Assembly (NCBI GenBank): GCA_002441285.1 | Contig: DJVR01000028.1 | Coordinates: 2,910 to 66,909 of the forward strand | Length of the DNA: 64,000 nt | From: Candidatus Atribacteria bacterium UBA6251 | GTDB lineage: Bacteria; Atribacterota; Phoenicimicrobiia; Phoenicimicrobiales; Phoenicimicrobiaceae | Direction: 5' to 3' | Part shown: in pieces, positions 31,157 through 40,793 of the stretch | How the letters are laid out: each line of letters opens with the position of its first letter | Numbering within the stretch: the first letter of the stretch is position 1 | Notes under the pieces: model-generated | Told to the model about the DNA's origin: nothing | Database searches by the model: none | The model's input: the letters and a program-made list of their open reading frames with translations, nothing else | Translations under genes and position numbers: made by a program

Positions 31157-32200
31157 ATGGCTTCTATCAGATTAGAAAATGTATCTAAATATGTTTGTAA
31201 AAAAGTGAATCTAGAAGTCAGAGATAGAGAATTAATAGTTTTACTAGGACCAAATGGGGCAGGAAAAACTACCTTACTAAATATTATTGCTGGTTTGGTT
31301 GATTACGAAGGTTCCGTGTTTTTTGACCAGAAAAGAATAGATCAATTTTCGCCTCAACAAAGAAGAGTAGGTTATTTATTTCAGGAAATAAATCTGTTTC
31401 CTCATCTAAAAGTAGTAGATAATATTATTTACAGCTTAAGAGCGCAGCACAGACCCGTTAACGAGATTAAAAAAAGGATGGATGAATTAATTTCTATGAT
31501 GAAATTAGAAAATTTGCTCTACCATTATCCCAAAGAATTGAGTGGGGGAGAGAAACAAAGAGTGGCATTAGCTCGCGCCCTGGCAAATCATCCTCAAATT
31601 TTATTATTAGATGAACCAATGAATAATCTAGATTATCAAACCTCAAAACATTTAAGGATTGAGTTTAAAATGATGCAGAAGAAACTTGGAATTACCACCA
31701 TCTACGTTACTCATAATTTTTACGAAGCACAAGAAATGGCTGATCGAATGGTAATAATTAATCAAGGAAAGATTGAACAAATTGGTTCTTATGAAGAGAT
31801 TTTCTTTCATCCTCAGGGAGCAGTGAACAAATTCATCGGTTCACCCAATGTTTTAGAATGTAATGAGTATAGGGATTTAGGTTTAGGAGTGGGAGAAGTA
31901 AAGTGTGGTGATATTTCTTTATTAGTCTTTGGAGAAGGCAAGAGGATAAGTAAAATTTTAATTTTGCCTGAAGATATTTATTTAACTAACTTTCAGCCCC
32001 CCGGTCCAGATATTAATCGGATAAAGGGAAGATTGAAGAAGATTGAAGAATTATCTTCATCTATGATTTGTTGTACGGTAACTACCCGAGAACTTTCTTT
32101 GAAAGCGAGATTATCCAGAGAGGTTTTTAATAGTATGAGGTTAAAATTAGACGATGAAGTTTGGCTAATCTTAGCCCCCCGAAAGTTAAAATTTTATTAA
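31157..32200 (+). CDS. ABC transporter ATP-binding protein with C-terminal TOBE/Mop-like extension
   Basis: Walker A GPNGAGKTT, signature LSGGEKQRVALARAL, Walker B LLLDEPMNNLD. There is a ~110-aa C-terminal extension of the type seen in molybdate/sulfate/sugar importer ATPases. Confidence 0.8.
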   Translation: MASIRLENVSKYVCKKVNLEVRDRELIVLLGPNGAGKTTLLNIIAGLVDYEGSVFFDQKRIDQFSPQQRRVGYLFQEINLFPHLKVVDNIIYSLRAQHRPVNEIKKRMDELISMMKLENLLYHYPKELSGGEKQRVALARALANHPQILLLDEPMNNLDYQTSKHLRIEFKMMQKKLGITTIYVTHNFYEAQEMADRMVIINQGKIEQIGSYEEIFFHPQGAVNKFIGSPNVLECNEYRDLGLGVGEVKCGDISLLVFGEGKRISKILILPEDIYLTNFQPPGPDINRIKGRLKKIEELSSSMICCTVTTRELSLKARLSREVFNSMRLKLDDEVWLILAPRKLKFY

Positions 32201-32213
32201 GGGCAGATACCTA
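32201..32213 (+). repeat. Left arm of the island-bracketing inverted repeat
   Basis: GGGCAGATACCTA, the exact reverse complement of 38924-38936. Confidence 0.8.
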
Positions 32214-32633
32214 GTTATTAATTTTTCTTCTTGAGCTATCTTTTTGATTTTGGTTAAAAATCGTCTTAAGATGTTATTCCTATCTTTTCTTGAAATCTGT
32301 AAATCTTTCTATAGAATCGTTTTTTTATAGAAATCGACTTTTCTAAGCCTTTACTTAATCCTTACCAGGAGTAATAATACTATAGCTGTTCTGATCATAG
32401 ATAGATTATAAGTCTTTTTGAAGCAGGATCGAGAATGAAAAGTAAATGATTATTACTATTTAAACTATAGATTGTAATTATTTAGAATAATTTTTTTTAC
32501 TACTTATAGTAGCGTTTACTTCCCGAATTTGTTAAAATTAAATTAATTATTAATAAAAAAAATCTTTTAATAATATTCTTAATGAATTTATTTGATAGAA
32601 TATAAAAAATTAATTATTTTATTGTGGTTAATT

Positions 32634-35600
32634 ATGACTAAAGAACAAAAATTTTATAAAGCGCTTCAAGATGTTTTCATCGGCGCCAAGATTGAGGGCA
32701 AAGGCGGTTTTGTTAATTTGATGAGGATTAAATCAAATTACTACCGCAAGATTGAAGATATTCTCAAAAATGACATTGAGACGGCTTTGGAAAGTTATCC
32801 CAAATTTAGGGATGAGCTTTTTGACAAACTATACTCATTTTTTAGCCGATACTTTACGAAAAGCGGCTCAATCTATTTCAATTCAACTCCATTTCATAAT
32901 AATATCTATGAAAAAGTCTATACCGATGATAAAGATGTCATTCTCTTTTGGAAAACGCAGATGCTCTACTATGTCAAAACGGATCGGATTTTCAGGAGTT
33001 TGCCAGTTGAATTCCCCTCTGATAGAGGGGTGGGCGCCGAAGGCGGACGGGGTGTTTTAAAATTTTACTTTGACGCTTCAAAGATAGAAAGCAAAAAAGC
33101 CAATGAAAAACGTTCGCTCGTTTTTGAGTTAAACAAAGTCCTTGAGGACGAAACCATTGTTTTTGGCGTTCAATACTCTGAAAGGGGCACAAAAACAAAG
33201 CAAGACGAGATACTAAAAGCCATAAAGAGAAAAGGCATAGCAATTACCGAAGAACAATTGGAACGCGCTTTTAGAGTCTTTGAAAAGCAAAGTGAGGTGG
33301 ATTTCTTTATCAATAAAAATGCCAAAGCATTCTTACAGGAACAATTTAAACTCTGGAGTTATCAGTATTTTTGGGAGGGAGCCAGAGAATGGGGGGCGGA
33401 TAGAGTCAATCAACTGCAAATTCTTAAAGATATTGCTTTCAAGATTATTGATTTCATCTCTCAGTTTGAGGACGAGCTGGTAAAAATCTGGAACAAGCCG
33501 AAGTTTGTTAAAAATTCAAACTATGTAATTACGCTGGGTAGGATTCTTTCTGCACGTCATTCTGAGCGAAGCGAAGAATCTCTTAAGTTAATTGAAAAAA
33601 TTCTAAAACATAAAAATATCACAGAACAAATTAAAGAATGGCAGGAGCTTGGAATTGTAGATAATGAATTTAAGGTAGAGAATGTTTTTGAAAATTCCCC
33701 TTCTATGAAGGGGTGTCAACCGAAGGTTGACGGGGTAGTGAAATGGAATGAATTACCATTCAATGCTGAACTTAAAGAAAGAGCCAAAGAATTGAGAAAA
33801 GCAGGTAATTTATCAGAAGTTTTATTATGGAACCAGGTCAAAAACAGGCAATTGTTGGGATTAGATTTTGATAGGCAAAAAATTATTGGAAATTACATAG
33901 TTGATTTTTATTGTAAAAACTTAGGGGTTGTTGTTGAAATTGATGGAGTAAGTCATGACGGGAAGGTTGAATATGATTTGGAACGAGATGCTTACTTAAG
34001 GGGATTAGGACTGAAAGTTATTCACATTTCCGATCTAGATGTAAAGAAAAATTTAGAAGGTGTAATTGAATTTCTGAAAGATGAATTAAACACCCCGTCT
34101 GCTAACGCAGACACCCCTCTACAAGAGGGGAATAAACACCCCGTCCCTTTGGGACACCCCTCTATAAGAGGGGAATTTAAGCATCTGCCGATTGATACGA
34201 AGTTTTTCAAGGATTTGGAGCTTGAGATTTTATCTCTTTTCGATGACCTTGATAATTCCTTAGATGGTTGGTTGATAAAGAGTGAAAATTATCAGGCGTT
34301 GAATACAATTCTGCCAAAGTTTAAAGAAAAAGTGCAAACGATATACATTGATCCACCGTTTAATACGGGTGATGATTTTCCTTATATTGATAAGTTCCAA
34401 AATTCTACATGGCTTACCTTGATGGAGAATAGATTAAAATTAGGAAAAGATTTTTTATGTTATAATGGTAGTATAAGTTTGCATTTAGATTCAAATGCAG
34501 ATTATTTTGGCAAAATATTATTAGACGAAACATTCGGGCAAGAATGCTTTAGAGTAAAAATTACATGGAAAAGGCACACAGGTCCTAAAATACAATCTCT
34601 ACACTTTCCTAATATATCCGATTTTATTTTAATTTATTCTAAAATAAACGACAATTGGGTATATAATCCTCAATATTTACCGTATAAAGAGGAGTATCTT
34701 AAGAAAATGTATAAGTACGAAGATGAAAAAGGAAAATACAGAATACATGATTTGTATGCTCCTGGGGAAGGGACAGAAAGAATATTCAAAGGGAAAACAA
34801 TAAAACCACCTAAAGGACATCACTGGAGTTATACACAAGAAAAAATTGATGAAATGATTAAAGAAGGAACAATATTTTTTGATAATAGGGGTTTTCCCAA
34901 ATTAAAAGTTTATTTAGGCAAGGGAGAACAAGTAACTAATATTTGGACAGATATAAATGTCATCCAAGGAAGTTCTATCGAATTCTTAAATTTTGCAACT
35001 CAGAAACCAGAAAAATTTTTATCAAGAGTCATACAATCTACATCTAATGTTGGCGACTTGGTTATGGACTTCTTCCTTGGCTCTGGCACAACCACAGCAG
35101 TAGCGCATAAACTCGGCAGGAAATGGATTGGTATTGAAATGGGAGAGCATTTTTATACAGTGGTTTTACCAAGAATGAAAAAGGTTTTGGCTTATGATAA
35201 ATCTGGTATTTCAAAAGAATTAAAAACGCCCCGTCCTTCGGACACCCCTCTACCAGAGGGGAATTCCCCTTCTATGAAGGGGTGGCAACCGCAGGTTGAC
35301 GGGGTAGTTTATCAAGGCGGTGGATTTTTCAAGTATTACGAACTTGAGCAATATGAAGAAGCGCTGGCAAACTGCAAATACGAAGATGGTGATTTGTTTA
35401 ATTCCCCTTTAATAAAGGGGTGGACTGCTGAAGGCAGGACGGGGTATTGGTCGGGCAGAAGTCCATATCAGGAATATGTCTTTATGAAAGACGAAAAAAT
35501 GTTGAAAACATTGGAGATTGATTATGAAAAAGAAAAGGTCAGAGTTGATTTATCAAGACTCTATCTAAACACCCCGTCTGCTAACGCAGACACCCCTCTA

Positions 35601-35756
35601 CAAGAGGGGAATATAGACATTGCCGAAACTCTGTCTAATTTAAAGGGAAAATATATCAAGCGAATTACTCCCGACGAAGTAGAATTTGAAGACGGCGAAA
35701 AAATCAATCTCAAAGATTTAGATTATAAAGTAATTAAACCCTTAATTTGGTGGTAA
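32634..35756 (+). CDS. mod: Type III R-M DNA methyltransferase (Mod; beta-class N6A/N4C MTase) carrying multiple in-frame insertions, including a DUF559 endonuclease domain
   Basis: Catalytic motif IV IYIDPPFNTGDDF comes before AdoMet motif I DFFLGSGTTTAVAHKLGRKWIGIE, the beta-class order typical of type III Mod. It lies 4 nt upstream of a Res-type helicase-nuclease gene. ATG 32634 (MTKEQKFYKAL) is more plausible than the listed TTG 32592. The insertions are listed as separate features. Confidence 0.85.
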   Translation: MTKEQKFYKALQDVFIGAKIEGKGGFVNLMRIKSNYYRKIEDILKNDIETALESYPKFRDELFDKLYSFFSRYFTKSGSIYFNSTPFHNNIYEKVYTDDKDVILFWKTQMLYYVKTDRIFRSLPVEFPSDRGVGAEGGRGVLKFYFDASKIESKKANEKRSLVFELNKVLEDETIVFGVQYSERGTKTKQDEILKAIKRKGIAITEEQLERAFRVFEKQSEVDFFINKNAKAFLQEQFKLWSYQYFWEGAREWGADRVNQLQILKDIAFKIIDFISQFEDELVKIWNKPKFVKNSNYVITLGRILSARHSERSEESLKLIEKILKHKNITEQIKEWQELGIVDNEFKVENVFENSPSMKGCQPKVDGVVKWNELPFNAELKERAKELRKAGNLSEVLLWNQVKNRQLLGLDFDRQKIIGNYIVDFYCKNLGVVVEIDGVSHDGKVEYDLERDAYLRGLGLKVIHISDLDVKKNLEGVIEFLKDELNTPSANADTPLQEGNKHPVPLGHPSIRGEFKHLPIDTKFFKDLELEILSLFDDLDNSLDGWLIKSENYQALNTILPKFKEKVQTIYIDPPFNTGDDFPYIDKFQNSTWLTLMENRLKLGKDFLCYNGSISLHLDSNADYFGKILLDETFGQECFRVKITWKRHTGPKIQSLHFPNISDFILIYSKINDNWVYNPQYLPYKEEYLKKMYKYEDEKGKYRIHDLYAPGEGTERIFKGKTIKPPKGHHWSYTQEKIDEMIKEGTIFFDNRGFPKLKVYLGKGEQVTNIWTDINVIQGSSIEFLNFATQKPEKFLSRVIQSTSNVGDLVMDFFLGSGTTTAVAHKLGRKWIGIEMGEHFYTVVLPRMKKVLAYDKSGISKELKTPRPSDTPLPEGNSPSMKGWQPQVDGVVYQGGGFFKYYELEQYEEALANCKYEDGDLFNSPLIKGWTAEGRTGYWSGRSPYQEYVFMKDEKMLKTLEIDYEKEKVRVDLSRLYLNTPSANADTPLQEGNIDIAETLSNLKGKYIKRITPDEVEFEDGEKINLKDLDYKVIKPLIWW
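33010..33054 (+). repeat. GC-rich double-hairpin element, copy 1 (forward), in frame in mod
   Basis: AATTCCCCTCT GAT AGAGGGG TGGG CGCC GAA GGCG GACGGGGTG, translated as EFPSDRGVGAEGGRGV. Confidence 0.8.
33542..33580 (+). repeat. Second type of small palindromic insert (HSERSEES-encoding) in mod
   Basis: GATTCTT (33542-48) pairs with AAGAATC (33574-80). Between them lies GTCATTCTGAGCGAAGCGAAGAATC, which has internal ATTCT/AGAAT and GC-GAA-GC pairings. Translated as SARHSERSEESL. It is GC-rich relative to its surroundings. Confidence 0.45.
33693..33738 (+). repeat. GC-rich double-hairpin element, copy 2 (forward); left boundary of the DUF559 cassette
   Basis: AATTCCCCTTC TAT GAAGGGG T GTCAACC GAA GGTTGAC GGGGTAG, translated as NSPSMKGCQPKVDGVV. 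Confidence 0.85.
34090..34134 (-). repeat. GC-rich double-hairpin element, copy 3 (inverted); right boundary of the DUF559 cassette
   Basis: ACACCCCGTCTGC TAAC GCAGACACCCCTCT ACA AGAGGGGAATA, translated as NTPSANADTPLQEGN. 34087-34134 is identical to 35566-35613 (48/48). Confidence 0.85.
34136..34177 (-). repeat. GC-rich double-hairpin element, copy 4 (inverted), tandem to copy 3
   Basis: ACACCCCGTCCC TTT GGGACACCCCTCT ATA AGAGGGGAATT, translated as KHPVPLGHPSIRGEF. The reading register differs from copy 3. Confidence 0.8.
35226..35265 (-). repeat. GC-rich double-hairpin element, copy 5 (inverted)
   Basis: ACGCCCCGTCC TTC GGACACCCCTCT ACC AGAGGGGAATT, translated as TPRPSDTPLPEGN (a third register). 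It shares its AATT end with copy 6. Confidence 0.8.
35262..35307 (+). repeat. GC-rich double-hairpin element, copy 6 (forward), abutting copy 5
   Basis: AATTCCCCTTC TAT GAAGGGG TGG CAACC GCA GGTTG ACGGGGTAG, translated as NSPSMKGWQPQVDGVV. The junction with copy 5 forms the 12-bp palindrome GGGGAATTCCCC (35258-35269). Confidence 0.85.
35400..35446 (+). repeat. GC-rich double-hairpin element, copy 7 (forward)
   Basis: AATTCCCCTTT AAT AAAGGGG TGGA CTGC TGAAG GCAG GACGGGGTA, translated as NSPLIKGWTAEGRTGY. Confidence 0.8.
35569..35613 (-). repeat. GC-rich double-hairpin element, copy 8 (inverted), exact duplicate of copy 3
   Basis: ACACCCCGTCTGCTAACGCAGACACCCCTCTACAAGAGGGGAATA, translated as NTPSANADTPLQEGN. 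Confidence 0.85.
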
Positions 35757-35760
35757 TAAT

Positions 35761-38736
35761 ATGGCAAAATTGTATCTTCAAGATATAGTAAATGACATTC
35801 CTTTTGAAAACTTGCCGGCAAAGTGGCAAGGGTTTGATTTTGCGCGGTTTTCAAAAGACAAAACGCTTTTTGATTTTCAAAAACAGGGACTTCAAAACGC
35901 GCTGAAAGGTCTATGGTTTTATTTCAAAGACAAGAACGGAGAAAAGCAAAGTTTGTACAATCACTATTTGGCAAACGACTTTACAGAAAAGTTTGATTAC
36001 GATTTAAAGAAAAAGGCGGAAGGGAAAACAGCAAAATATTTATTGGAATATGATAAAGATTATCCAGTGAAAGGCAATAAGATTTCATTTGCTCACTTTA
36101 TCAATAGAATGAGTTTTTGGATGGCGACCGGTTCAGGAAAAACTCTGATTATAGTTAAGTTGATTGAGCTTTTAGGCAAACTTATTGCCGAAAAAGAATT
36201 GCCGATAGGGGACATTCTTTATTTAGCACACCGCGACGACCTTTTGGACCAGTTTAAAAATCATGTTGAAGAATTTAACAGCTTTCATTTTGACACAAAA
36301 ATTAACCTTAAAAATTTGAGAGATTATGAAAGTGTGAAGCGCGAAAACGCCCTGCCTTTTGCCAAAAACGAAATTACTGTTTTTTATTATCGTTCTGACT
36401 TAATTTCCGATATTCAAAAAGAAAAGATTGTGAATTTCAGAAATTATGACGACAGCGGCAAGTGGTATATTCTTTTGGACGAAGCCCACAAAGGCGACAA
36501 GGAAGACAGTAAACGTCAGATTTTATACTCCATACTTTCAAGGAACGGATTTTTGTTTAATTTTTCCGCTACCTTTACCGATCCAAGGGACTTTGCAACC
36601 TGTGCTTTTAATTTCAATCTTTCAAGGTTTGTTGAAGAAGGATACGGCAAACATATTTATGTGTCTTCTGCCGAGATTAGCGCTTTTCGCGGACGAGGCG
36701 ATTTTTCGCCGATAGAAAAGCAAAAAATCGTTTTGAAAACGCTTTTGCTTTTAACCTATATTAGTAAACACCTTGAAAATATTAGGAGCGTAAATGATAC
36801 CCTATATCACCGTCCATTACTTTTAACTTTAGTTAATACAGTTTATGGCAAGAAAAAAGACGAGGGGGAAATAGAGAAAGAAGCTGATTTGAAATTGTTT
36901 TTCAATGAATTAGAAAAGATTGCCAAGAATGAAATTAGAGCGGATTTGCTCGAAAAAGCAAAACAGGAACTTATCCAAGAGTTTCGCGATGATGCAAAAT
37001 TTGAATTTGAGGAGTTAGAGTGCGCTGTCAACGCAGATTTGGTTTCAAAACTAGATTACAAAGATATTCTGAAATATATTTTGAACGCCGAAACTCCGGG
37101 CAAGATTGAGGTTTTAAAAATTCCCGGCAATAGGCAGGAATTGATTTTTAGGTTGATGACTGCTGAAAAGCCGTTTGCCTTAATCAAAATCGGCGATATT
37201 TCCGGCTGGCTAAAAGATAAACTTGAGGGATATGAAATAAACGAAAGTTTTGAAAATGAAAGTTATTTCCGGCGAATAAGTCGCGATGATTCTGACATAA
37301 ATGTTTTAATGGGTTCGCGCTCTTTTTACGAGGGCTGGGATTCTAACAGGCCAAATCTTATTTTGTTTGTGAATATTGGAGTTGGAAGCGATGCTAAAAA
37401 ATTTGTTCTGCAATCAGTCGGAAGGGGCGTAAGAATAGAGCCACAGAAATATTTAAGAAAGCGTCTTCAAAATTTGTTTAATGCAAAGAAAGTAAAAGAG
37501 CAATTATTTGAGAAAGTTAAGAACCTAATCTTGCCGATTGAGAGCTTGTTTGTTTTTGGGACTAACGCCGAAAACTTGAGAGAAATAATCGCAACACTAA
37601 AAGCGGAAAAGCAAGATAGAAATTTAGGTGAAGCGTTTATTTTAAATCCTGAAGCGCAAAAACATCTTCTTTTGGTGCCGGTTTACAAAAACTCTGAAAG
37701 GATTTTTGCCGAAGAAAAAGACCCGCAGAAATATTCTATCAGTCGCAAAGATTTTGATATAACATCTCAATTTTATGGATTTTTAGGCGATAAAATCGCT
37801 TTAGCCAAATATGATTGCGAAGTGAAGGTTTTAAAGAAAGCAAAAGAAAGTTTTGAAGAAAAAGAACGATACTATGATTTTAGCGAAAGAAATTCGCTTT
37901 TTGAGCCGGAGTTAACCCTTGGCCAGATTTTTGATTATCTCGGAGTTAAAAGCAAGGAGTTTGAAACGTTTAAAGAGTTGGAAAATGAAATTGTGCATTT
38001 CAAAAAGGTTAGATTCAGTGATGGTGGAAAATACCAAAAGATGTTAGAAGCGATTGATAAAGTTAAAAATTATCCACAAAAAAAAATCAAAGAAAAAGAG
38101 GTAGATGAAGAGTTTGATAGAACAAGGAATAAAGAAAAGTATAAACAAGAATTAAAGCAACTTGAGTTAAATTTTCAACGAGAAGTAAGGTATGACAAAT
38201 TAAAAATTAAGTATTTAGCCAACCATTACTATCTTCCGGTTATAGTTTCAGAAACTGAAAAAATTGACTACCTGAACCATATTATTAATGTTGATAGTGA
38301 GGTAAAATTTATTGAAGAATTGGGGGAAAATATTGATAAATTAAAAAATATTTTTGATTGGTGGATGTTTTCAAAACTTGACCAAACACTGGATGAAGTA
38401 TCAATACCTTATTACAATCCGAAAGAAAATAGTATCTCTAATTTCAAACCCGACTTCATTTTTTGGGCACAAAAAGGAAACCGATACTTTATTTTATTTG
38501 TTGACCCTAAGGGAACCGAACATGCAGACGGTTATAGAAAGATTGACGGCTATTCAAGAATATTTGAAATTGAAAAAGATGGACAAAAACAAAGCAAAGA
38601 TTTTTTATACTCTGAATTTACCATAAATGTGAAGCTATTGCTGAAACCAAGGCGAGGAAAAGCTGGAGTTTTGAATAATTACAAAGGATACTGGTTTGAC
38701 AATTTCGAGGATTTTAATAATAAAATAAAAATATAG
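35761..38736 (+). CDS. res: Type III restriction enzyme Res subunit (SF2 helicase-like ATPase with C-terminal PD-(D/E)xK nuclease)
   Basis: 991 aa. Motif I WMATGSGKT, motif II ILLDEAHKG, motif III FNFSATF, motif VI QSVGRGVRI. C-terminal nuclease-like FKPDFIFW...FILFVDPKG. Starts 4 nt after the mod stop. Confidence 0.8.
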   Translation: MAKLYLQDIVNDIPFENLPAKWQGFDFARFSKDKTLFDFQKQGLQNALKGLWFYFKDKNGEKQSLYNHYLANDFTEKFDYDLKKKAEGKTAKYLLEYDKDYPVKGNKISFAHFINRMSFWMATGSGKTLIIVKLIELLGKLIAEKELPIGDILYLAHRDDLLDQFKNHVEEFNSFHFDTKINLKNLRDYESVKRENALPFAKNEITVFYYRSDLISDIQKEKIVNFRNYDDSGKWYILLDEAHKGDKEDSKRQILYSILSRNGFLFNFSATFTDPRDFATCAFNFNLSRFVEEGYGKHIYVSSAEISAFRGRGDFSPIEKQKIVLKTLLLLTYISKHLENIRSVNDTLYHRPLLLTLVNTVYGKKKDEGEIEKEADLKLFFNELEKIAKNEIRADLLEKAKQELIQEFRDDAKFEFEELECAVNADLVSKLDYKDILKYILNAETPGKIEVLKIPGNRQELIFRLMTAEKPFALIKIGDISGWLKDKLEGYEINESFENESYFRRISRDDSDINVLMGSRSFYEGWDSNRPNLILFVNIGVGSDAKKFVLQSVGRGVRIEPQKYLRKRLQNLFNAKKVKEQLFEKVKNLILPIESLFVFGTNAENLREIIATLKAEKQDRNLGEAFILNPEAQKHLLLVPVYKNSERIFAEEKDPQKYSISRKDFDITSQFYGFLGDKIALAKYDCEVKVLKKAKESFEEKERYYDFSERNSLFEPELTLGQIFDYLGVKSKEFETFKELENEIVHFKKVRFSDGGKYQKMLEAIDKVKNYPQKKIKEKEVDEEFDRTRNKEKYKQELKQLELNFQREVRYDKLKIKYLANHYYLPVIVSETEKIDYLNHIINVDSEVKFIEELGENIDKLKNIFDWWMFSKLDQTLDEVSIPYYNPKENSISNFKPDFIFWAQKGNRYFILFVDPKGTEHADGYRKIDGYSRIFEIEKDGQKQSKDFLYSEFTINVKLLLKPRRGKAGVLNNYKGYWFDNFEDFNNKIKI

Positions 38737-38923
38737 TCTATTAAAAATTAATTAAGAAATAGAGGATAATTAATTTAATTTTAAAGTAAATATAAAAGGC
38801 GAGTAAAGATTAAAATCGCACTAAATTTTCTATTTAACCATAGAAATCTTCTGGTACAGCACTATTATTAAGAGAGATAACTGCACTTTTATTTATTTTT
38901 TAAGTAAAGTTAGGGATAGAGAA

Positions 38924-38936
38924 TAGGTATCTGCCC
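38924..38936 (-). repeat. Right arm of the island-bracketing inverted repeat
   Basis: TAGGTATCTGCCC, the exact reverse complement of 32201-32213. Confidence 0.8.
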
Positions 38937-38960
38937 CTATTTACAAGGAGGGTAAAGCTG

Positions 38961-40793
38961 GTGGATAAATTGAATTTAAAGAAATTACAGGATTTGAAGA
39001 ATCGATATGTAGAAAAATTGGTGAAAGAAGCTATTAGCCTTTGTAAGCCAGAAAAGGTTTCCGTTATTACTGATGATGAAGAAGATATTGATTATGTAAG
39101 AGAATTTGCTTTGAAAAGCAAAGAAGAGATGAAATTAAAGATGAGTGGTCATACTATTCATTTTGATGGCTATTATGATCAAGGCAGAGATAAAAAAAAT
39201 ACCAAATATCTTTTATCGGAAAAGGTTGATTGGGGGATAAATATCAACTGGGTTAAAAAAGACGAAGGATTAAAAGAAATATATTCTTATCTAGATGGTA
39301 GTATGAAAGGAAAAGAAATGCTGGTAAGATTTTTTTCTCTTGGTCCTAATAATTCTATATTTTCTTTAAAAGCTCTCCAGATAACCGATTCGCCCTATGT
39401 TGCCCATAGTGAAGATCTACTTTATCGTCCTGGTTATGAGGAATTTAAAAGGCTTAAGAACTCTCCTGATTTTTTCTTTTTTCTTCACTCTGCAGGAAGA
39501 TTAGAGAACAGGGTAAGTGCAGATATAGAAAAACGCAGAGTATATATTGATCTGGAAGAAAATAAGGTTTATTCAGTAAATACTCAATATGCAGGTAACT
39601 CCTTAGGATTAAAGAAGTTAGCTTACAGATTGGCTATTAAGAAGGCTAATGAAGAAGGATGGTTAGCTGAACATATGTTCATAATGGGGGTTCATGGCCC
39701 GGGTGGTAGAATTACTTACTTTACTGGTGCTTTCCCCAGTGCTTGTGGAAAAACCAGTACTGCCATGATTTCTGGTCAGAGCATTGTAGGAGATGATATC
39801 GCTTATCTAAAAAAGATAAATGGAGAAATAAGGGCAGCTAATGTAGAAAATGGAATCTTTGGTATTATCCAGGATGTTAATCCTGATGATGACCCTTTAA
39901 TCTACCGGGCACTTACTACTCCTCGAGAACTTATCTTTTCTAATGTTTTGGTAAAAGATGGAATTCCTTACTGGCAGGGAATGGGAAGAGATATACCAGA
40001 TGAAGGTATTAATCATTCTGGAGAATGGTATAGAGGTAAAAAAGATAAAGAAGGAAAACTGATTGAATGTTCACATAAAAATGCTAGATATACTATTAGG
40101 TTGAATGCTTTAGAAAACTTTGATAGCAAGGCAAATGATCCCGCAGGAGTACCTATTAAGGCAATAATCTACGGTGGTAGGGATTCAGATACCTCTATGC
40201 CGATTGTTGAATCTCTTAGCTGGTCGCATGGAGTCTTTCTGGGAGCTACAGTGGAATCAGAAACTACCGCTGCCACCATTGGGGTTCAGGGATTAAGAGA
40301 ACATAATCCTATGGCTAATTTAGATTTTATTTCTATTCCTTTCAGTCAATATATAGAAAATCACTTACGATTTGCTGATGATGTAAAAGAAGTTCCTAAA
40401 ATTTATACTACTAATTACTTTTTAAAAGATGAACAGGGTAATTATCTAAATAGTAAATTAGATAAGAAGGTATGGATACTGTGGGCAGAAGGAAGAGTAA
40501 ACCATGAATTTGAAGCCATTGAAACTCCAGTAGGTAGAATACCTCACTATCAAGATTTAAAAGATTTATTTAAGAGTGCATTAGATAAAGAATATACTAA
40601 AACTGAATATATACAACAATTTTCTTTACGGTTAAGTAAATATTTAGAAAAGATGGAGAGAATAAAAAAAATCTTTACCCTAATTAAAATGCCAGCAGAA
40701 TTTACTAAAGAATTTCAGTTACAAATAGATAAGCTTAAGACTGCTAAGGAAAGATTTAGAGCAGAGATAATTTCTCCTTTTAAGCTTATCTAA
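38961..40793 (+). CDS. pckG: Phosphoenolpyruvate carboxykinase (GTP)
   Basis: 610 aa. Kinase-1a motif GAFPSACGKTS, plus ...NARYT... and YGGRDSDT regions, characteristic of GTP-dependent PEPCK. GTG start after AAGGAGGG. Confidence 0.9.
   Translation: MDKLNLKKLQDLKNRYVEKLVKEAISLCKPEKVSVITDDEEDIDYVREFALKSKEEMKLKMSGHTIHFDGYYDQGRDKKNTKYLLSEKVDWGININWVKKDEGLKEIYSYLDGSMKGKEMLVRFFSLGPNNSIFSLKALQITDSPYVAHSEDLLYRPGYEEFKRLKNSPDFFFFLHSAGRLENRVSADIEKRRVYIDLEENKVYSVNTQYAGNSLGLKKLAYRLAIKKANEEGWLAEHMFIMGVHGPGGRITYFTGAFPSACGKTSTAMISGQSIVGDDIAYLKKINGEIRAANVENGIFGIIQDVNPDDDPLIYRALTTPRELIFSNVLVKDGIPYWQGMGRDIPDEGINHSGEWYRGKKDKEGKLIECSHKNARYTIRLNALENFDSKANDPAGVPIKAIIYGGRDSDTSMPIVESLSWSHGVFLGATVESETTAATIGVQGLREHNPMANLDFISIPFSQYIENHLRFADDVKEVPKIYTTNYFLKDEQGNYLNSKLDKKVWILWAEGRVNHEFEAIETPVGRIPHYQDLKDLFKSALDKEYTKTEYIQQFSLRLSKYLEKMERIKKIFTLIKMPAEFTKEFQLQIDKLKTAKERFRAEIISPFKLI

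Follow-up and report, generated by a model that had tools for sequence, protein, structure and literature searches.

What does a perfect inverted repeat represent when it exactly encloses a restriction–modification (R-M) island? The question is raised by a locus in the window analysed here, a 64,000-nucleotide stretch of DNA from Candidatus Atribacteria bacterium UBA6251. Two R-M genes, mod and res, lie between two native genes. On the left is the ATPase gene of an ABC transporter (31157-32200, + strand; Pfam ABC_tran and TOBE), the last gene of an NMT1-type SBP/permease/ATPase operon, with orthologues of 63-67% identity in family genomes. On the right is the gene for GTP-dependent PEP carboxykinase (pck; 38961-40793, + strand; assigned by Pfam), 79% identical to its closest relative. 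The left 13-bp arm, GGGCAGATACCTA, occupies 32201-32213, immediately 3′ of the TAA stop codon of the ATPase gene (32198-32200). The right arm, at 38924-38936, is its exact reverse complement and ends 24 nt upstream of the GTG start of pck (38961). These positions agree with those of the initial annotation, as do the 420 nt and 187 nt that it gave for the left and right arm regions, with the mod start being ATG at 32634. It offered two readings of the repeat, either a host terminator hairpin split by the island or the terminal inverted repeats of a mobile unit of ~6.7 kb.

The bracketing repeat is not an assembly artefact; independent contigs from several runs read across both island junctions, as does an 18.6-kb JGI contig of identical sequence. 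It is also non-random, as had been supposed. Inverted matches of at least 13 nt between two 60-nt zones 6.7 kb apart are found in only 2 of 20,000 random placements in the host genome, and both arms belong to one repeat family (see below). The proposed genome search for further 13-mers yields no exact copies in the whole 1.7-Mb Atribacterota genome beyond the two arms. A second perfect inverted pair, of 19 nt (32532-32550 and 38766-38784), lies between them and is longer than any found in 3000 shuffles or in 3000 real AT-rich pairings (maximum 17). The notion that the arms are decayed long inverted repeats was dropped, as there is no similarity between or outside the perfect blocks. Family and terminator scans detect neither Rfam families nor terminators in the arms, and the island contains no tRNA genes.

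Across 86 genomes of the phylum, the exact 13-mer recurs only as three singletons, which is the control level. One of these, in genome G023, was the lead to a repeat family; an operator function for the gene downstream of it was considered and dropped, the motif being absent from orthologous leaders. The 13-mer is the core of the perfect 20-bp terminal inverted repeat, AATAGGGACAGACACCTATT, of a 755-bp autonomous element. This element has a TTGACA-17-TATAAT promoter and encodes a 225-aa Y1 (HUH) transposase, with the stop codon of the gene lying inside the right terminus. The protein matches Pfam Y1_Tnp (E 1e-14, 55 bits; cut-off 23), and among NCBIfam models it fits NF047646 REP_Tyr_transpos best (E 1.4e-17); it reaches only 20 bits with the IS200 model (cut-off 55). 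Judged by these profile matches, it appears closest to the REP-associated tyrosine transposases (RAYTs), and is termed RAYT-like here since its 63.9 bits fall below the curated cut-off of 80.

The termini are far more widespread than the gene. When up to three mismatches are allowed, the 19-nt terminus is found 159 times in 30 family genomes (2-18 copies per genome), compared with 10 times for a reversed control; outside the family, in 56 further genomes of the phylum, the counts are 20 and 25, respectively. The cognate transposase gene (at least 81% identity) is present in zero or one copy in each of the 30 family genomes; three of these have it as a full-length single copy and three more as fragments. 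The 20-bp termini flank it in G017, G007 and G027. This patchy presence (3/30) is compatible with repeated loss or transfer. Termini survive in intergenic DNA singly, in tandem or as doublets of 125-540 nt, and family copies often lie within a few kb of each other (for example in G008:C38, G008:C63 and G019:C34). Full-length copies lack a target duplication, in agreement with the absence of a target-site duplication at the island, which the initial annotation had correctly reported.

Both arms can be placed within this family. The reverse complement of the left arm region aligns to the full-length elements of G007 and G017 at both of their ends, namely to element positions 654-753 (E 4.5e-10) and 1-73 (E 1.7e-7), with positions 74-609 missing. 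This colinear alignment defines a decayed, internally deleted copy of 260 nt (32198-32460, − strand). The 13-bp arm (− strand) is the core of its right-end (RE) terminus, of which the outer CTATT is gone (RE model in nhmmer, E 0.0024). Next to it lies a remnant of the transposase 3′-end (32217-32297, − strand; residues 199-225) with stop codons inside, recognised by DNA alignment and by tblastn (20 bits, E 0.018; a score reached by 4 of 300 shuffles). The alignment to element 1-73 covers a left-end remnant (32385-32460, − strand) that includes promoter, 5′UTR, transposase start codon and a decayed left end (LE), and independently matches G007:C10:26036-26068. The copy thus has its own second end, the LE at 32443-32460, where 11 of 18 positions match and the mismatches are chiefly GC to AT. 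A further transposase-like match (32425-32541, E 1.2) was discarded; it overlaps the conserved promoter region of the R-M cassette.

The right arm matches the element terminus alone. It is part of a solo terminus in the pck leader, GAGAATAGGTATCTGCCCCTATT (38919-38941, + strand; nhmmer E 0.0017), which agrees with the element terminus at 20 of 23 positions and is identical at 21 of 21 positions to G023:C6:10992-11012. A likeness of the pck leader to those of relatives (TAGGTA(A)TC) was not significant and was dropped. The right and left copies are, in this order, the two best matches of the terminus model in the whole genome. Both conform to the consensus from 20 aligned copies of relatives, which reads ...CCTAAGAAGAAAGTTGATAAATAGGTGTCTGTCCCTATT, and they share a rare subfamily variant with two substitutions, which accounts for the perfect match over 13 bases. 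A point against the reading as family copies is that the body of the left copy is ~30% diverged from the consensus, in contrast with the 13/13 identity of the repeat core.

The two 13-mers are thus most probably (about 0.78) terminus copies of a small transposon-like repeat family of the host's Atribacterota family. That they are instead two unrelated short matches, found at the island edges by coincidence, is highly improbable. Very many windows were scanned, so a 1e-4 event will recur, but both arms were independently identified as members of one family; chance therefore does not explain the sequence match and could account only for where the arms lie relative to the island. Nor is the further 19-nt repeat likely to be a chance match. 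As for placement, the host genome has about four recognisable termini, of which two flank this island, within 7 kb; random placement would give this with a chance of ~5%, which leaves room for a causal link to the island.

Comparison with relatives bears on the hairpin reading. In all six family genomes that have the ATPase gene and pck on one contig, these are separated by 2.7-14 kb of conserved native genes. The two are never adjacent in relatives, and the adjacency of an amidohydrolase gene to pck is conserved in at least 15 genomes. Hence, there was no ancestral hairpin at an ATPase–pck junction. Relatives have no such hairpin after the ATPase stop codon, and the uninterrupted form has no match in the JGI metagenome contigs or in the 85 other genomes of the phylum. 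The proposed terminator, GGGCAGATACCTA-loop-TAGGTATCTGCCC, split at this junction, is therefore not borne out, whereas the idea that the arms are palindrome-containing repeats of the host lineage survives. A revised form of the split hairpin would have the arms as halves of one short inverted doublet (a REPIN-like hairpin), with the R-M cassette inserted or recombined into its spacer. Compact inverted doublets do occur in relatives (125 nt in G029:C204, ~66 nt in G019:C34, 151 nt in G008:C138), the arm cores are identical, and some IS elements are known to insert into REP palindromes. However, the left arm has its own partner, the decayed LE, 245 nt away, so that the left element is already complete, while the right arm adjoins its own partial inverted core, TTAGGGATAGAG. 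Together with the absence of a doublet from the native interval of relatives, and of its uninterrupted form from the metagenome contigs and phylum genomes, this makes the split doublet very unlikely.

Relative to other family genomes, the island site is a synteny breakpoint and not a simple insertion. Neither an empty site nor an island-free strain was found in any dataset. Logan contigs from eight runs, compared over the region, have no skip joint and an identical island throughout, and exact-protein look-ups of ATPase and pck variants led to the island in every case. There is no same-genus relative among the genomes compared; pck matches fall from 99% to 79% identity. Contigs C25 and C56 are treated as one organism, judged by co-occurrence in samples and similar divergence from G009.

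The contents of the island have a history of their own. By their domain signature, the adjacent genes mod (32634-35756, + strand; 1040 aa; Pfam N6_N4_Mtase, 127 bits) and res (35761-38736, + strand; 991 aa; Pfam ResIII, 67.7 bits) form a predicted Type III R-M system; Mod contains an in-frame DUF559 module (Pfam DUF559). The cassette is foreign, as the initial annotation had concluded. The codon usage that it had noticed is reflected in GC3 values of 0.338 for mod and 0.333 for res, at the 96th-97th percentile (genome median 0.261), and res has the highest codon-usage divergence among the 75 longest ORFs. In addition, the proteins to which Res is 79-85% identical come from other phyla and carry the labels Phycisphaerae, Ignavibacteria, Elusimicrobia, Lentimicrobiaceae and Pacebacteria. 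The GC-rich elements described earlier are eight double-hairpin inserts, all within mod and none elsewhere in the genome. Overall GC is unremarkable. The island does lack an intact integrase or transposase ORF and a tRNA, but is not free of traces of mobility genes, as the left arm region holds the decayed transposase remnant. This remnant is not detectable by eye.

The boundaries of the cassette do not coincide with the repeats. DNA homology with the cassettes of G080 and G046 begins at 32480, at the start of the promoter/leader region (32480-32633, + strand), which contains the left copy of the 19-nt repeat. Eight related cassettes have only 32480/32633-38736 in common with the window, so the cassette's own boundaries lie inside the repeats. 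Related cassettes with both flanks present have no flanking inverted repeats, only chance matches of 10-12 nt. The AT-rich spacer at 38737-38918, which holds the right 19-nt copy, shows no homology, whether to related cassettes, the element or relatives.

These boundaries bear on the second reading, in which the arms are the terminal inverted repeats of a ~6.7-kb unit. In its most developed form, 32201-38941 would be a non-autonomous cargo transposon (a mobile insertion cassette) with the R-M genes as passenger and a RAYT-like Y1 transposase acting in trans. The termini are oriented towards each other (−,+), just as in bona fide elements and doublets, and share the rare variant. The lack of a target duplication also fits; Y1 transposition leaves none. 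In G028:C105, an LE with promoter and an RE lie 1457 nt apart, with a 197-aa Lcl_C-like ORF replacing the transposase, which means that cargo or replacement inside termini occurs in this repeat family. R-M genes with flanking inverted repeats have, moreover, been regarded as putative non-autonomous transposons (Furuta et al. 2010, PMC2853133). Against this, the left terminus has lost the integrity of its outer 5-6 nt and is part of a 260-nt element that is already complete, having a second end of its own, and the right one is a solo terminus. No second copy of the unit was found anywhere searched, and no cognate transposase in the host genome. Related cassettes lack common flanks, and the site is a breakpoint. 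The cargo transposon is thus unlikely. It is equally doubtful that RAYT-like Y1 termini can bracket and move passengers, with the R-M genes here and the Lcl_C-like ORF in G028 as mobilised cargo. What stands of the terminal-repeat reading is that both arms belong to the terminal inverted repeats of a family of mobile elements that leaves no target duplication; that they are the ends of the island itself does not.

In sum, a decayed 260-nt element lies directly 3′ of the ATPase stop codon, its right end forming the left arm, and a solo terminus ~20 nt upstream of the pck ribosome-binding site forms the right arm. The cassette probably arrived by horizontal transfer in an interval that was already populated by repeats, and its arrival probably displaced the native gene block of this interval, unless that block had been displaced before. 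The repeats would then mark a plastic, rearrangement-prone interval and may have served as recombination substrates, rather than being the cassette's own ends.

This reading removes a tempting but wrong inference, in that a perfect bracketing repeat can consist of two members of a dispersed family instead of the ends of an island. The diagnostic for such repeats is to search relatives for the repeat with mismatches allowed. The locus also documents horizontally acquired defence genes at a repeat-marked synteny breakpoint, and a REP/RAYT-like repeat system in the Atribacterota, a phylum of which hardly any members have been cultured; the literature yielded no account of elements of this kind for it. 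If the termini can carry cargo, this would explain how R-M cassettes that share only coding sequences across phyla are installed, and would provide a route by which defence genes that lack mobility genes could spread in Atribacterota.

Among known systems, IS200/IS605 elements and their MITE derivatives (PATEs) resemble the Atribacterota element in their Y1 transposase (Pfam PF01797), small size, lack of target duplication and internally deleted non-autonomous derivatives. IS200/IS605 elements have no terminal inverted repeats, but subterminal hairpins instead, and are usually multi-copy. The perfect 20-bp terminal inverted repeats and the single-copy gene thus do not fit an IS200/IS605 insertion sequence, and the score with the IS200 model is below its cut-off. 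The transposon-like R-M units of Furuta, Abe & Kobayashi (2010, PMC2853133) are similar in that inverted repeats bracket R-M genes without linked mobility genes, with allelic substitution or rearrangement relative to related genomes and foreign codon usage. That study excluded high-copy repeats. The repeats at the present locus are members of a dispersed family and not unit-specific, and are short (13 bp, or 20-23 bp as termini) instead of long; neither an empty site nor a target duplication is present, and the cassette boundaries lie inside the repeats. With dispersed repeats and cassette homology that ends at 32480/38736, the locus does not fit an R-M unit with its own terminal inverted repeats.

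A close parallel is provided by REPIN-RAYT systems, in which REP-associated tyrosine transposases are accompanied by flanking REP sequences (Nunvar 2010, PMC2817692; Bertels & Rainey 2011, PMC3116915; Bertels 2017, PMC5581495). There are differences: the Atribacterota transposase scores below the NCBIfam RAYT cut-off, its gene occurs in few family genomes, the repeats number 2-18 per genome and not the hundreds typical of REPINs, they are perfect 20-bp terminal inverted repeats directly at the ends of the gene, the hairpin is AT-rich (AATAGG/CCTATT), and the host belongs to the Atribacterota, not the Proteobacteria. What the two have in common is a Y1/HUH transposase with RAYT as best family match, whose gene does not exceed one copy per genome and lies between inverted copies of a short sequence that contains a palindrome. 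In both, this sequence is enriched in intergenic DNA, where it occurs singly, in tandem and, in the Atribacterota at far lower numbers than in typical REPIN populations, as inverted doublets; it is not accompanied by target duplication, and persists in genomes that have lost the gene.

Two Type III restriction-modification (R-M) genes, mod (32634-35756; 1040 aa, with its true start at the ATG at 32634) and res (35761-38736; 991 aa), lie between an ABC-transporter ATPase gene and pck, the gene for GTP-dependent PEP carboxykinase. The 13-bp perfect inverted repeat that the initial annotation placed around them is borne out by the sequence, including its spacing to pck. The left copy, GGGCAGATACCTA (32201-32213), directly follows the TAA stop codon of the ATPase gene (32198-32200); the right copy, its exact reverse complement (38924-38936), lies 24 nt before the GTG start of pck. 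The proposed check for further copies found none besides the two arms in this genome (G000; 1.7 Mb, 67 contigs). When pairs of 60-nt zones with a spacing of 6.7 kb were placed at random in 20,000 trials, two placements gave an inverted match of equal length. In the stretches between the perfect repeat blocks (this one and a 19-nt pair described below), the two arms show no similarity. An assembly artefact was rejected: both island junctions are spanned by independent contigs from several sequencing runs and by a 100%-identical 18.6-kb JGI contig.

A BLAST comparison of both arms with all collected loci first hinted at their nature. Genome G023, one of three with a singleton 13-mer match, has a 21-nt exact match to the right arm, AATAGGTATCTGCCCCTATTT, and on its inner side this copy is flanked by sequence similar to the reverse-complemented inner flank of the left arm. 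Compared with the family Phoenicimicrobiaceae, this region yields about 20 short copies in many genomes, at 88-93% identity. The consensus of the aligned copies, TTAAGTTAAAGCCGAAAGGAAGGCCTAAGAAGAAAGTTGATAAATAGGTGTCTGTCCCTATT, fits both window arms and constitutes the right end of a 755-bp element in three genomes (G017, G007 and G027), with no target duplication found in any of them. The left end of this element, AATAGGGACAGACACCTATT, is followed by a TTGACA-17-TATAAT promoter, and its 225-aa ORF terminates within the right end (...AATAGGTGTCTGTCCCTATT) at a TAG stop codon; left and right ends together form perfect terminal inverted repeats of 20 bp. The ORF encodes a Y1 transposase (Pfam PF01797, E 1e-14). 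Among NCBIfam models it matches 'REP-associated tyrosine transposase' best, with a score of 63.9 bits, which is under the 80-bit cut-off but far higher than the 20 bits of the IS200 model. The transposase gene occurs in zero or one copy per genome, full-length in 3 of the 30 family genomes and as fragments in 3 others. In a census of the terminus (19-nt query, at most 3 mismatches, reversed sequence as control), the 30 genomes of the family had 159 occurrences and 10 of the control, and the phylum's 56 other genomes had 20 and 25, respectively. The copies include singlets, pairs in tandem and doublets of 125-540 nt that face each other. In the intergenic DNA beside the G023 terminus (locus L099, contig C6; 7680-8022 and 8883-9003), at least four different short repeats of 45-135 nt form a mosaic; they are dispersed in dozens of copies across family genomes, including G000 (contigs C34, C58, C23 and C20:66832-66948), and are candidates for additional MITE-like families.

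The arms are termini of this host-family Y1-element repeat. Reverse-complemented, 32198-32460 matches both element ends in colinear order (element 654-753, E 4.5e-10; element 1-73, E 1.7e-7). This identifies the distal left arm as a decayed, 260-nt element copy with an internal deletion, lying on the minus strand, with the left 13-mer as the core of its right end. Transposase residues 199-225 are still detectable, and 32385-32420 retains the transposase start codon, 5'UTR and -10 box. The copy has its own left end at 32443-32460 (11/18 matches, the mismatches mostly GC->AT); the left terminus belongs to a self-contained decayed element. The right arm holds a solo terminus, GAGAATAGGTATCTGCCCCTATT (38919-38941), which matches the element terminus at 20 of 23 positions and beyond which nothing matches the element. 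When the whole genome was searched with a terminus profile, the two arms were the best matches (E 0.0017 and 0.0024), followed by C44:10375-10400. Both deviate from the consensus by the same two substitutions (TAGGTaTCTGcCC), a variant otherwise seen only in G023, and it is because of this shared variant that they match perfectly over 13 nt. A cognate transposase gene was not found in G000, its best match there having 37% identity.

The R-M cassette is foreign, as had been suspected from its codons. Res homologues are present in 12 of 121 related genomes, and hundreds of proteins, including some that bear the labels Phycisphaerae, Ignavibacteria, Elusimicrobia, Lentimicrobiaceae or Pacebacteria, share 79-85% identity with Res, whereas the housekeeping pck reaches at most 79% identity even inside the family. 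For mod and res, GC3 amounts to 0.33-0.34 (genome median 0.26), and the codon usage of res is the most deviant among the 75 longest ORFs. Eight related cassettes were compared, namely those of G080, G046, G001 and G022 and of four contigs from metagenomes or MAGs that represent other phyla. DNA homology with them is confined to the genes, plus 155 nt of promoter for G080 and G046, giving a common span from 32480 (or 32633) to about 38730. The cassette boundaries thus fall inside the arms, not at the repeats. No relatives of the 182-nt right spacer were detected, and no flanking inverted repeats were found in related cassettes for which both flanks were available; one related cassette adjoins tRNA-like sequence.

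The suggestion that the arms are terminal inverted repeats of a ~6.7-kb mobile unit therefore holds in part, though not as it was put: they do derive from the terminal inverted repeats of a mobile element, but the cassette ends inside them and the left terminus is part of an element of its own. It is improbable that the cassette was once moved as cargo by these facing termini, even though a left end with promoter and a right end 1457 nt apart in another relative (L134; G028:C105:2507-3963) enclose an unrelated 197-aa ORF (weak Lcl_C domain) and small ORFs with no transposase gene, and R-M units with flanking inverted repeats have been proposed as non-autonomous transposons (PMC2853133).

Further features were observed in and around the cassette. 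Another perfect inverted pair, 19 nt long (TTAAAATTAAATTAATTAT), lies at 32532-32550, in the cassette's promoter spacer, and at 38766-38784, 30 nt beyond the stop codon of res. This pair is longer than every match in 6000 controls and unique in the genome, and it was not found in related cassettes. The mod gene carries eight ~47-nt GC-rich double-hairpin elements, in frame and in both orientations (33003-35618; copies at 33006, 33689, 34087, 34130, 35221, 35258, 35396 and 35566). Related mod genes are without them at these sites; 33010-33060, 35219-35319 and 35399-35452 are missing from the contigs of other organisms. A profile search found the element nowhere in the genome outside mod, and the related res genes of G080, G046 and G001 have copies at other positions; these elements therefore travel with this R-M gene family rather than with the host. 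Inverted copies also flank a DUF559 (Vsr-like endonuclease) module (33690-34176), an in-frame insert at mod residues 366-528 that is missing from mod of G080, G046, G022 and a metagenome contig. An 11-kb mod/903-aa/386-aa/res cassette plus flank is shared by G080 (L037, contig C96) and G046 (L038, contig C56) at 92-97% DNA identity, from a left boundary 375 nt upstream of mod; these genomes belong to different families of the phylum, so that either recent between-family transfer or a binning error is indicated.

The alternative proposal was a host terminator hairpin split by the island. The ATPase gene and pck share a contig in six family genomes, and in all six they are 2.7-14 kb apart, in the order ATPase, IclR regulator, carbamate kinase, carbamoyltransferase-like gene, 0-8 kb of further genes, amidohydrolase, pck; the amidohydrolase-pck adjacency recurs in at least 15 genomes, sister family included. 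Since native genes occupy the interval in relatives, which show no such hairpin 3' of the ATPase stop, an ancestral ATPase|pck hairpin is unlikely; what stands of the proposal is that the arms are palindromic repeats of the host lineage. A search for an empty site was negative: the uninterrupted hairpin GGGCAGATACCTA-N(0-30)-TAGGTATCTGCCC was not found in JGI metagenome contigs, and in the phylum's 85 other genomes the 13-mer is as frequent as the control. All contigs and runs of the species carry the island, with no skip joint found; the runs are oil-field and oil-facility metagenomes. The pck matches drop from 99-100% identity (same species) to at most 79%, with no close relative found.

Synteny marks the locus as a breakpoint rather than a simple insertion site. 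In G000 the native ATPase-pck block lies elsewhere, after a his/ser gene cluster on contig C25, continuing on C56, and is interrupted by a second pck paralogue and by an insertion that was assigned to the IS1595 type by eye from the sequence, without a profile search. This insertion (L082:11063-11127, L080:15400-15851; zinc-ribbon N-terminus MKTCPRCGSKKWW...) causes the contig break in every assembly; its transposase gene splits the carbamate kinase/carbamoyltransferase junction at the ends of C25 and C56. The second pck (C56:28410-30233; 67% identical to that of the window) is placed between the carbamoyltransferase-like gene and the remainder of the block. Two pck genes also occur in G039 and G047.

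The cassette would have been installed in a plastic interval that already contained these repeats, the native gene block having probably been displaced at the same time or earlier; the terminus repeats may have been used as recombination substrates. The Atribacterota element family has the same anatomy as the REP/REPIN-RAYT systems (PMC2817692, PMC3116915, PMC5581495), but its copy numbers are lower.
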